Below, piece by piece: positions 92 to 2,943 of a stretch of DNA of 64,000 nt. How positions within the stretch are numbered: the stretch's first letter is position 1; each line of letters starts with the position of its first letter. The notes beneath the pieces are model-generated. The model had not been told where the DNA came from, searched no databases, and worked only from the letters and a program-made list of their open reading frames with translations. This stretch comes from an uncultured Thermoleophilia bacterium (GTDB taxonomy: Bacteria; Actinomycetota; Thermoleophilia; UBA2241): contig CAVQSP010000004.1 in the NCBI GenBank assembly GCA_963715985.1, forward strand, positions 32,001-96,000, written 5' to 3'. Made by a program: the position numbers and the translations under genes.

Positions 92-1561
92 GTGAAACGA
101 AACCTGTTCGCCGGCCGCCGGCGCAGCGAGGGCGTGCAGCTCAGCGTCCTCACCGACGACGACCTGCTCGACATCCACTCCGGCACGCTGGAGGTGCTGG
201 ATCGCACCGGCGTGTTCGTGGAGGCGGAGGAGGCCCGCGAGGTCTTCGCCCGCGCGGGCGCCGAGGTCGACGACGGCACCGGTGTGGTGCGCATCCCGCC
301 CCACGTGGTCGAGGAGGCCCTGCGCACCGTGCCGTCCAAGGTCGTGCTCGCGGGGCGCGACCCGAAGAACGACATCGTGCTCGAGCCGGGGCGGGTGGGC
401 TTCACCAATTTCGGCGAGGGCGTCAAGGTCGTGGACCCGTACACCGGCGAGGTGCGCGTTCCCACCAAGGACGACGTCGGCACCACGGCCAAGGCCGTCG
501 ACTACCTCCCCAACGTGGACGTGTACGAGCGCGCCCTCACGGCCATGGACGTGCCCCAGGAGTCGGCCCCGTTGCACCAGGCCGAGGCCTGGATGACCAA
601 CACCTCCAAACACGGCTTCATGGGCTCGGGCAACGGCTACCTCTCGGAGAAGCTCCTCGACATGGCGGCGGCCATCGTCGGTGGCCGCGACAAGCTTGCC
701 CGGCGGCCGATCATCTCGTTCATCACGTGCCCGGTGAGCCCGCTCAAACTGGTGCGGGACACCTGCGAGATCATCATGAGCGCGGCCCGCGGCGGCGTTG
801 CCGTGAACATCCTCTCCATGGCCATGGCCGGCGGCTCCTCGCCGGTCACCCTGGCCGGGACGCTGGTCACACACAACGCCGAGGTGCTGGCGGGGCTCAC
901 GCTCAACCAGCTCACGCGGCCGGGGGCGGCGGTGGTGTACGGCAGCTCCACCACCGCCATGGACCTGCGGCTCGCCGCCGCCTCGGTGGGCTCTCCGGAG
1001 TGCTCGCTCATCAGCGCCGCCGTCGCGCAGATCGCGCGCTTCTACCTCCTGCCCAGCTGGGTCGCCGGTGCGTAGGGCGACTCCAAAGTGGTCGATGCCC
1101 AGAGTGGCCACGAGAAGACCCTGACCGGCCTGATGCCGGCGTTGGCAGGTGCCAACCTCATCTACGGTCTGGGGATGATCGAGTCGGGCATGACCTTCGA
1201 CTTCGGGCAGCTCGTCATGGACGACGAGTTCGCCGGCATGATCAAGCAGTGCGTCGCCGGCATCCCGGTCAACGACGAGACGCTCGCCCTCGACGTCATC
1301 CACGAGGTCGGGCCCTTCCAGGACTTCCTGAGCCACGACCACACCATGGCGCACATGCGCTCCACCTCGCAGCCGGCGCTCATCGACCGCCGCGTCCGCG
1401 ACGAGTGGGCGGCCATGGGGTCGAGCACGTTGCACGAGCGGGCGCTCGCCAAGGCGAGGGTCATCATCGAGACGCACGTCCCGGAGCCGCTGCCTGAGGG
1501 TGTCCCGGAGGAACTGGCGGCCATCATCGCGGCCGCCGAACGCGAGCTGGGGGTGGGCTGA
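92..1561 (+). CDS. mttB: Pyrrolysine-containing trimethylamine:corrinoid methyltransferase; in-frame TAG at 1073-1075 (Pyl328)
   Basis: ORFs 23-1075 and 1088-1561 share a frame and join through TAG to read SWVAGA-O-GDSKVVDAQSGHEKT, matching the methanogen MttB Pyl context. Also GF.NFGEG, CPVSPL and AMAGGSSPVTLAGTLVTHNAEVL motifs. GTG start after AAGGGA. Confidence 0.95.
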
Positions 1562-2943
1562 TGGCCGACATCCGTACGCGCATGGGCGATGGCTACGTGG
1601 CCATGCTCACGCCCGAGGAACTGCGCGCCGACCTGGAGGCCGGCTGCGCCGAGGCGGTGAAGCGCGCCAAGGTGCCGCCGCTCGAGGAGAACGAGTTCGA
1701 CTGGCTCGTCGACCTCTTCGCCAATCCGAGCCGCATCATGGGCGTGGACCCGGGCCGCGAGGTGATCCTCACCAAGGACGGCTCGGTCAACACGCTGTGC
1801 TCGGCGCAGCTCTCCAGCGGCGTCGGGCTGCCGCTGAGCCGCGAGCAGGCCTTCCGCGTGTTCGAGCGCGCCTTCTGCTTCGACACCATGGAGATCGGCC
1901 ACCCCGACTACTCGTACAAGCCGGTCAAGCCCATCGTCTCCCTCGAGGCGACCGGGGTGGAGCAGGCGCTGCTCACCACCATCATCCCGGTGTTCTACGG
2001 GGCGATGCCCAACTTCGGCCTGTACGCGCAGCCGGACGGGCCGTTCCCCAACCCCGCCGACCTGCTGCCGCGCGGCGAGGTCGAGGCGGCGCGCGAAGTG
2101 CAGATGGAGATGGCCGAGGCCTGCAAGGCCGACATGCTCTACGTCTCCCGGATCATGGCCGAGGTGGGCGCCGACGGCATCAACTTCGACACCACCGCCT
2201 CCACCGGCGACGCCGAGTTCCTCGCCACCCTGCAGGCGGTGGAAGAGCTGGCCGCGACCACCGACCTCTCCATCGAGGTCGGCATGGCGGCCGAGTTCGT
2301 GCTGGGCTTCCACGGCCAGCTCGAGTACAAGGGCAAGCGGCTGGCCGGCATGTGGCCGCACCAGCAGGTCAAGGTGGTGGAAGAGGCCGGCGCCCACATC
2401 TTCGGCCCCGTCGTGAACACCAACTCCCGCAGGTCGGTGCCGTGGAACGTGGCGCGTGCCGTCACCATCGTCAAGGAGTGCTCGCGCGTCGCCGAGATCC
2501 CCGTGCACGCCAACGTGGGCATGGGCGTGGGCGGCGTGCCGATGTTCGAGGTGCCGCCCGCCGACGTGCTCACGCGGGCCAGCGCCGCGATGGTGATGAT
2601 CGCCAACGTGGACGGCTTGTAGGTGGGCACCGGCGATCCCTACGGGATGTCGATCAGCCACGCGCTTGCCTCCGGCATGGGGGGCATCCGCACCACTGGA
2701 GACCTGGTGGCGAGGATGCAGCTCCGCAGGAAGATGAGGCTTCCGGAAGCGAAGAAGTACGTGGCCGACAAGCTCAAGGTGGGTCTGGACGACCTCGCCG
2801 ACAGCACCGTGATGAGGGGCCTGCGGCAGGAGCTGGACATCGGCGTGATCACCGCCGTGCCCGGCTGCCGCAAGGGCATCGAGGCCAAGCGCAACATCTC
2901 CGAGCTGCTGGACGTTCCTGTACCCTGTCTGAAGCGGCTGTAG
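1561..2943 (+). CDS. mtbB: Pyrrolysine-containing dimethylamine:corrinoid methyltransferase; in-frame TAG at 2620-2622 (Pyl354)
   Basis: N-terminus [41 protein letters not shown]; read-through gives [37 protein letters not shown], the MtbB Pyl context. TGATG overlap with mttB. Confidence 0.95.

Follow-up and report, generated by a model that had tools for sequence, protein, structure and literature searches.

A probable operon of pyrrolysine-dependent methylamine methyltransferases in an uncultured Thermoleophilia bacterium

The mttB–mtbB locus

We analyzed a stretch of 64,000 nucleotides from an uncultured Thermoleophilia bacterium (assembly GCA_963715985.1, contig CAVQSP010000004.1, positions 32,001 to 96,000; hereafter the window), at the beginning of which two genes lie in tandem on the plus strand. 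The first, mttB (92–1561), codes for a trimethylamine:corrinoid methyltransferase of the pyrrolysine (Pyl) type and the second, mtbB (1561–2943), for a dimethylamine:corrinoid methyltransferase of the same type. Both reading frames are crossed by an internal TAG codon, at 1073–1075 and at 2620–2622 on the plus strand, which we read as pyrrolysine. The window begins within contig C4 of its genome (G000), an assembly of 4.35 Mb in 22 contigs with 70% GC, 88.8% completeness and 7.29% contamination; other places in this genome are given by contig and position.

The frame of mttB is open from position 23 or 92 to the TGA at 1559–1561, and the TAG at 1073–1075 is its sole interruption. Possible starts are an ATG at 23 and a GTG at 92 with the sequence GAAGGGA 5 bases upstream. 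GTG 92 is the likely start because of this upstream sequence and because the alignment with the archaeal MttB begins there (the phmmer alignment with Methanosarcina barkeri MttB starts from residue 25 as counted in the ATG-23 form, corresponding to GTG 92). With the TAG read through, the protein matches TIGR02369 with 735.8 bits (equivalog cut-off 525) over profile positions 2–469 of 469 and PF06253 with 316 bits, and a phmmer comparison with solved structures aligns it end to end with M. barkeri MttB (7xcl and 7xcm, E ~1e-123). The TAG codon, which is residue 351 of the ATG-23 form and 328 of the GTG-92 form, falls on X334, the pyrrolysine of 7xcl, and on K334 of the mutant chain of 7xcm, so that the catalytic position assigned to it in a preliminary description of this DNA is borne out. 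The residues Gly110, Met249, Tyr364 and Gly372 of the M. barkeri enzyme are kept as G131, M266, Y381 and G389; the structural paper describes these four as active-site or corrinoid-contact residues and states that Gly110 and Tyr364 are 100% conserved among Pyl-MttBs (PMC9842639). Across the Pyl-type MttB proteins of our set the equivalent of Tyr364 is likewise retained.

The ATG of mtbB at 1561 overlaps the TGA of mttB by one base and the two genes are therefore probably translationally coupled. MtbB matches PF09505 (Dimeth_Pyl) with 639.7 bits (cut-off 25), reaching 459 of the 463 profile positions, and TIGR02368 with 525.7 bits (cut-off 369.1). Thus both genes exceed the cut-offs of the families to which the preliminary description had assigned them. 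The internal TAG is residue 354 and lies in the motif D-G-L-O-V-G-x-G-D-P. A sequence search found no solved structure related to MtbB, and its pyrrolysine site was judged by the family profile and by conservation among bacteria instead of by a direct alignment with a Methanosarcina MtbB. That the frames continue beyond the internal TAGs, as had been noticed earlier, is also seen in the GC content at third codon positions (GC3), which is 0.93 in the downstream part of mttB (1076–1561) and 0.90 in that of mtbB (2623–2943).

Conservation of the internal TAG codons

We compared the pair with 80 related loci taken from contigs of one genome per species. In 86 of 86 MtbB matches of these loci a TAG stands at the aligned codon. 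A family search in 60 genomes of the window's family gave the same picture, with exactly one TAG in all 150 MtbB matches listed, and all 11 MtbB genes of the window's own genome have TAG at the pyrrolysine site. The corresponding column is invariant in an alignment of 38 full-length MtbB sequences (A2), in which 35 of the 106 columns after the TAG and 74 of the 353 columns before it are invariant.

The MttB family is mixed in this respect. Among its matches in the related loci 34 of 62 have the TAG, including every one listed at at least 48% identity. A tblastn survey of the own genome with both window proteins found 56 MttB-family matches spanning the site, 10 with TAG and 46 with a sense codon; the paralogues of more than 49% identity have TAG at the site in all but one case. 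The placement of the TAG codons is far beyond chance.

We also counted the substitutions between the mtbB gene of the window and eight orthologues by codon position. The counts for the first, second and third position are 79, 38 and 223 after the TAG and 238, 149 and 654 before it. Since the excess at the third position is equal on both sides, selection acts on the downstream part as on a protein, and this part is translated in frame.

These data bear on the possibility that the TAG codons are real stops and the genes pseudogene fragments, split genes or products of sequencing errors. The assembly is indeed rich in frameshifts, TAG ends about a fifth of the genes of this genome and release factor 1 (RF1) is present. 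Against this stand the identical TAG codon in every MtbB match counted above, from many independent assemblies, the coincidence of the TAG of mttB with a known pyrrolysine site, the similar pattern of purifying selection before and after the TAG and the presence of a complete pyl gene set, with pylB frameshifted in this assembly (see below). We regard real stops as hardly credible, and the earlier judgment that sequencing errors are unlikely holds, the same mtbB codon being TAG throughout the related loci. It was also correctly foreseen that standard annotation would split such genes: the database gene calls for MtbB homologues are almost all 353 amino acids long, that is, cut at the TAG.

Raw reads were of little help in this question. 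Although 14 DNA runs from wetland metagenomes contain 0.64–0.73 of the sampled words, only short contigs could be assembled (DNA runs X1, X8 and X14; RNA run X15). None of the 40 listed differences between read contigs and window (80 more are unlisted) lies at 1073–1075 or 2620–2622, which neither confirms nor refutes the TAG codons. Two contigs assembled from the RNA reads of X15 (records 18 and 20) cover both TAG positions at 90–99% likeness; they possibly derive from relatives and are no proof of transcription. We also folded the 120 nucleotides after each internal TAG in search of a structure resembling a pyrrolysine insertion sequence (PYLIS); the z values of −1.90 and −0.98 make no convincing case for one.

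Pyrrolysine machinery on contig C13

The preliminary description had proposed to look for the pyl genes in the genome, and nearly all of them were found intact, on contig C13. In the coordinates of this locus (L001) the plus strand carries pylB (4818 to about 6006), pylC (6006–7253, 317.9 bits, over the cut-off), pylD (7250–8056, 199.5 bits, over the cut-off), the gene of tRNA-Pyl (8127–8199, corresponding to C13:555126–555198), pylSn (9302–9559, TIGR03912 with 124.6 bits, cut-off 51) and a corrinoid protein gene (11287–12042). The gene pylSc lies on the minus strand (12326–13186, TIGR02367 with 316 bits, cut-off 178).

Only ARAGORN calls the tRNA-Pyl. The predicted tRNA has a CUA anticodon, a single base separating its acceptor stem from its D stem, a D-loop of 5 nucleotides and a variable loop of 3 nucleotides, features expected of a tRNA-Pyl. 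An Rfam search of the region gave no match at E ≤ 0.01.

The gene pylB changes frame once in the assembly (G000:C13) and its N-terminal part scores 304.8 bits (cut-off 348.2). Splits of this kind are widespread in the assembly: the acetyl-CoA synthase (ACS) gene, corrinoid protein genes and several mtt and mtb copies are broken like pylB, pointing to indel errors. In the relatives G008 and G156 the pyl genes stand in the same order, with pylB in a single frame. We therefore read the frameshift of pylB as an assembly error.

As the window and the pyl genes lie on different contigs, we considered whether the two could stem from different organisms joined by binning. The contamination of the bin and its 22 contigs would allow for this. 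The GC content, on the other hand, is 0.69–0.71 on all contigs. In both G008 and G156, moreover, pylSc and a TAG-containing mtbB share one contig, which argues against a binning artefact, and the two traits are found together almost throughout the family and are both missing from two of its genomes (G002 and G014). An artefact of this kind appears to us very improbable.

Contig C13 also carries adjacent selA and selB genes (G000:C13:103605–106215) with a gene for tRNA-Sec near (C13:139538–139635). Judged by its gene content, the organism would have the means to use both selenocysteine and pyrrolysine, the 21st and the 22nd amino acid, and the 22-amino-acid code put forward in the preliminary description is literally plausible.

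UAG as a stop codon

We determined the stop codon usage of the own genome from 2613 crude open reading frames (ORFs), which were picked by their GC3 signature. They end in TGA (77.4%), TAG (19.4%, 507 cases) and TAA (3.2%), proportions much like those of the same trinucleotides in the genome as a whole. RF1 is present and scores above its cut-off. The median distance to the next in-frame stop is 61 codons after TAG and 58 codons after TGA (p = 0.83), and thus no excess of back-up stops after TAG-ending genes was detected.

As an example of a highly expressed essential gene terminated by the recoded codon, the gene of elongation factor Tu (EF-Tu; G000:C11:467816) ends in TAG. The next in-frame stop, also TAG, follows 28 codons further.

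A reassignment of UAG to pyrrolysine throughout the genome, as recently described in certain archaea (Kivenson et al. 2025, cited in PMC13695967), might be thought of in view of the very high number of Pyl genes in this lineage and of mtbB and EF-Tu genes ending in TAG. It is at odds with the share of TAG among the ORF ends, which matches the trinucleotide share, with the presence of RF1 and with the equal distances to the next stop, and we give it very little credence. UAG is therefore not reassigned genome-wide; because TAG ends about 19% of the genes, RF1 is present and back-up stops are lacking, the recoding is site-specific or conditional. Insertion of pyrrolysine would then compete with RF1 or be switched on conditionally.

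The mtbB gene itself holds a second TAG, at 2941–2943, which acts as its stop; the family profiles end here. This TAG is in frame with the downstream gene of a major facilitator superfamily (MFS) transporter and the next stop is reached only at 4305. TAG ends the mtbB gene of the window and all 16 orthologue rows of at least 75% identity (loci L014–L026, L049, L062 and L063), the ending CLKRL-TAG being common to 14 of the loci with such orthologues, and the mttB partners of these genes all end in TGA. In the remaining 70 MtbB matches a terminal TAG occurs in 13, approximately the background rate. We treat the conserved terminal TAG as the result of slow stop codon turnover in a young clade and not as a designed feature; it is still unexplained.

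Programmed read-through of the terminal TAG into the MFS gene was considered and rejected as a conserved feature, since the orthologues differ widely in how soon another in-frame stop follows (after 5 to about 474 codons) and the DNA after the mtbB stop, often folding into a GC-rich hairpin, is unrelated between the loci.

Taxonomic distribution

The nearest loci, at a protein identity of 87–93%, have mttB directly upstream of mtbB and are titled as metagenome-assembled genomes (MAGs) of uncultured Thermoleophilia, Actinomycetes or Actinomycetota. This agrees with the Actinomycetota-like organism suggested from the DNA alone. One near locus bears the title Deltaproteobacteria, which we ascribe to a problem of labelling or binning.

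PylSc occurs in 61 of 301 sampled genomes of the class, the own genome included. By family, it is present in 51 of 55 genomes of the window's family, in 9 of 55 of one other family and in 0 of 190 of the remaining ten; an even sample of the phylum (401 genomes) contained it twice, both times in the window's class. In the window's family 58 of the 60 sampled genomes contain MtbB, each with between 1 and 15 matches. Neither PylSc nor MtbB is present in G002 and G014, two small genomes that belong to the genus. The pyrrolysine trait appears to be shared by the whole Thermoleophilia family.

Paralogues and the substrates of the pair

The own genome encodes about 23 Pyl methyltransferases, namely 10 MttB, 11 MtbB and 2 MtmB proteins with TAG. 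A twelfth MtbB row of the tblastn survey is an out-of-frame piece of a frameshifted copy on C10. The TAG-containing paralogues are 44–69% identical to the window pair. In a FastTree tree of 87 MtbB rows, from which frameshifted copies were left out, the window copy falls, with full support, into a clade that comprises 11 Actinomycetota rows, and a deep clade apart from it is made up of six own paralogues. One region of the genome (C14:682–698 kb) contains in the order mtmB, corrinoid, mtmB, corrinoid, mtbB, corrinoid, corrinoid, mttB what looks like a canonical gene set for trimethylamine (TMA), dimethylamine (DMA) and monomethylamine (MMA).

The preliminary description had proposed that the pair demethylates TMA to DMA and further to MMA. 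TMA and DMA are indeed the likely substrates, but this is not certain, because there are about ten such pairs in the genome and the more canonical mtm/mtb/mtt cluster lies elsewhere. The two proteins could be true Pyl enzymes and yet act on other tertiary or secondary methylated amines, as one of many diverged modules. This would fit the 10 MttB and 11 MtbB paralogues at their moderate identity, the separate cluster on C14 with a corrinoid gene beside each enzyme gene, the several deep and well-supported clades formed by the MtbB paralogues, and the pair's own TetR regulator and MFS transporter together with its lack of a corrinoid gene. Both proteins, however, are well above equivalog cut-offs that were built on TMA and DMA enzymes, the MttB residues for TMA activation are kept, and we know of no Pyl enzyme with another substrate, which also counts against a different specificity. 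We consider other substrates rather unlikely.

Several relatives of these enzymes in the genome do without the TAG. Right after a TAG copy, a Pyl-MttB paralogue of 57.5% identity (G000:C3:63028–64503) has Leu (CTC) at the pyrrolysine site and Ala at the equivalent of Tyr364; it may represent a recent loss of pyrrolysine dependence. The two MtmB copies with TAG are nearly identical to each other, and there are five further MtmB homologues without TAG (G000, C11:185062–186423, C11:311391–312839, C3:48518–49864, C14:103360–104757 and C14:620337–621717). These are 26–34% identical to Pyl MtmB and each adjoins a corrinoid protein gene. In Methanococcoides a non-Pyl MtmB homologue is reportedly needed for the use of tetramethylammonium and choline, according to a paper of 2026 (PMC13044021).

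Neighbouring genes and pathway parts

A gene for a TetR-like regulator (C4:31150–31929), just outside the window, precedes mttB, and TetR homologues adjoin mtbB or mttB in 29 of the 80 related loci. Downstream of mtbB lies the MFS transporter gene (3034–4305, plus strand, PF07690 with 190 bits), a candidate importer of the substrate amine. Of the related loci only L026 has this gene after mtbB; it was therefore set aside as a conserved partner, and its link to mttB–mtbB is weak. Scanning positions 1–4400 for promoters and terminators revealed no promoter-like site and two terminator-like sites, both inside mtbB, which is the chance level.

Parts of a route for the methyl group are encoded elsewhere in the genome. 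We found 29 corrinoid protein matches (roughly 20 genes), CdhC/ACS, seven matches of the URO-D family, four of pterin-binding methyltransferases and two of activators of the RACo/RamA type. A carbon monoxide dehydrogenase/acetyl-CoA synthase (CODH/ACS) cluster with RACo and a pterin-binding methyltransferase is located at G000:C11:144815–152000 and subunit I of a haem-copper oxidase at C13:213624–214964. The coexistence of haem-copper oxidase and CODH/ACS points to a facultative or microaerotolerant organism and not to a strict anaerobe; that the organism is an anaerobe, as initially assumed, is not established.

The window contains two more genes of the MttB superfamily, at 34960–36531 and 43325–44857, which have no TAG and carry Ser or Ala at the pyrrolysine site. 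Their neighbours are genes of an oligopeptide-type ATP-binding cassette (ABC) transporter, two BKACE genes (20088–21026 and 57584–58474) and genes of acyl-CoA enzymes, which suggests that this region serves the metabolism of a quaternary amine or carnitine-like compound. On the minus strand at 5593–10291, over genes for an FAA hydrolase, a CCG-domain/4Fe-4S/FAD-oxidase set and an aminotransferase, the phase of the third-position GC shifts several times, reflecting either several short genes or further frameshift errors.

Discussion

Taking these results together we consider it highly probable that mttB and mtbB form a coupled operon of Pyl-dependent methylamine:corrinoid methyltransferases, whose internal UAG codons are decoded by a pyrrolysyl-tRNA with CUA anticodon while UAG is not reassigned genome-wide. 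The two proteins belong to the known families, the TAG codons lie at the positions given, the pyl machinery is encoded in the genome and all of this recurs throughout the family. What we infer from these findings is that pyrrolysine is inserted, that the substrates of the window pair are TMA and DMA and that the methyl group takes the route outlined below.

The pair stands between the gene of the TetR-type regulator and that of the MFS transporter. PylBCD would supply the pyrrolysine with which the split synthetase, PylSn and PylSc, charges the tRNA. If the Methanosarcina enzymes, as described in the structural and review literature on them (PMC9842639, PMC2933860), are a guide, the pyrroline ring of pyrrolysine would bind and activate the amine. 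A corrinoid protein whose gene lies elsewhere in the genome would then take up the methyl group at its Co(I), and a methylcorrinoid:pterin methyltransferase (or one of the URO-D type) could move it into the folate branch of the Wood–Ljungdahl pathway. Corrinoid protein that had become oxidised would be reduced again by a RamA-like protein. Transfer into the folate/Wood–Ljungdahl route is plausible because the genome supplies the corrinoid, URO-D, pterin-binding, RACo/RamA and CdhC/ACS matches.

Several observations weigh against this interpretation. The presence of pyrrolysine in proteins of this organism is deduced from sequence. The pyl genes sit on a different contig from the pair, in a bin with 7.29% contamination, and the frameshift of pylB, if real, would bar the strain from making pyrrolysine. 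It is awkward that mtbB ends in TAG if the gene is expressed exactly when pyrrolysyl-tRNA is present. The equivalent of Thr111 in the window MttB is Glu; the same residue is found in 24 of 30 Pyl-MttB matches of the related loci. The roughly ten paralogous pairs of the genome make the substrate of this one less certain. Finally, no corrinoid protein gene adjoins the pair in the first 12 kb of the window and about 14 kb upstream. Adjacency of the corrinoid gene (mttC) to mttB is usual, but not strictly defining.

When compared with M. barkeri MttB (7XCL, 7XCM and 7XCN; PMC9842639), the window protein shares the full-length alignment, the equivalent of Pyl334 and the active-site residues named in that paper. 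It differs in being bacterial, in its origin from a genome of 70% GC, in the Glu at the Thr111 equivalent and in having no mttC gene beside it, and its downstream methyl acceptor is probably a pterin and not coenzyme M. MtbB is by profile (TIGR02368, PF09505) of the same family as Methanosarcina MtbB1-3, which are treated in PMC2933860, but unlike them its gene ends in TAG.

Bacterial pyrrolysine users named in earlier work are Desulfitobacterium hafniense, Acetohalobium arabaticum, Thermincola and the delta-1 symbiont of Olavius (PMC2933860, PMC1976440). The genome studied here shares with them the split PylSn/PylSc, the conserved amber codons in mttB and mtbB, the lack of a common PYLIS-like structure and the pattern that TAG is still a normal and widely used stop. 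The gene order is different: we find pylBCD-pylT-x-pylSn with pylSc divergent nearby, whereas pylScBCDSn was reported for Gram-positives. The 8 Pyl methyltransferases of the Olavius symbiont were described in 2007 as the largest set of any bacterium (PMC1976440); this member of the Actinomycetota has about 23 such genes.

The preliminary description overstated the novelty of pyrrolysine in this group. A survey counted 81 bacterial genomes with PylRS, including "two Actinobacteria" (PMC9630628; repeated in PMC11764691). According to the main text of a study on a thawing permafrost mire, Actinobacteriota MAGs express Pyl-encoding mttB and mtbB (PMC10805028). That text singles out three genera, Bog-752, RBG-16-64-13 and Bog-1198, as the most active methylotrophs of the three main bacterial phyla, Proteobacteria, Acidobacteriota and Actinobacteriota; the passage does not assign the genera to the phyla. 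The phylum, the gene types and the recognition by truncation at the amber codon are as here; the main text of that study mentions neither pylS nor pylB, and we noticed no copy numbers or family-wide distribution in it (PMC10805028). Searching the literature, supplements aside, for pyrrolysine in Thermoleophilia or Actinomycetota, for mttB in Thermoleophilia and for methylamine in RBG-16-64-13, and judging mainly by the search listings, we found nothing further on this lineage. The window genes are hence new members of known families, with a trait already noticed in the lineage, and their annotation is ordinary and well supported. The family-wide distribution and the size of the Pyl gene set appear to be under-described in the literature searched.

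As a tentative extension, possible though in our view doubtful, the family might hold the largest bacterial set of Pyl enzymes yet, with paralogue clades, often accompanied by TetR regulators, that have diversified beyond TMA, DMA and MMA and with the window pair as one dedicated module. If true, the substrate range of pyrrolysine chemistry in soils and wetlands would be much wider than the three known reactions.

Since nearly all database homologues are stubs of 353 amino acids, left by gene callers that cut at the TAG, the use of methylamines by soil and wetland Actinomycetota is systematically under-annotated. TMA and DMA otherwise feed methylotrophic methanogens. If the Thermoleophilia family decodes UAG as pyrrolysine, it would be a sizeable bacterial sink for both amines. 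The lineage also offers a natural example in which a large set of Pyl genes exists alongside normal termination at UAG, and this bears on how bacteria handle an ambiguous codon. The scale of the pyrrolysine trait and its fixation throughout the family merit a dedicated study.

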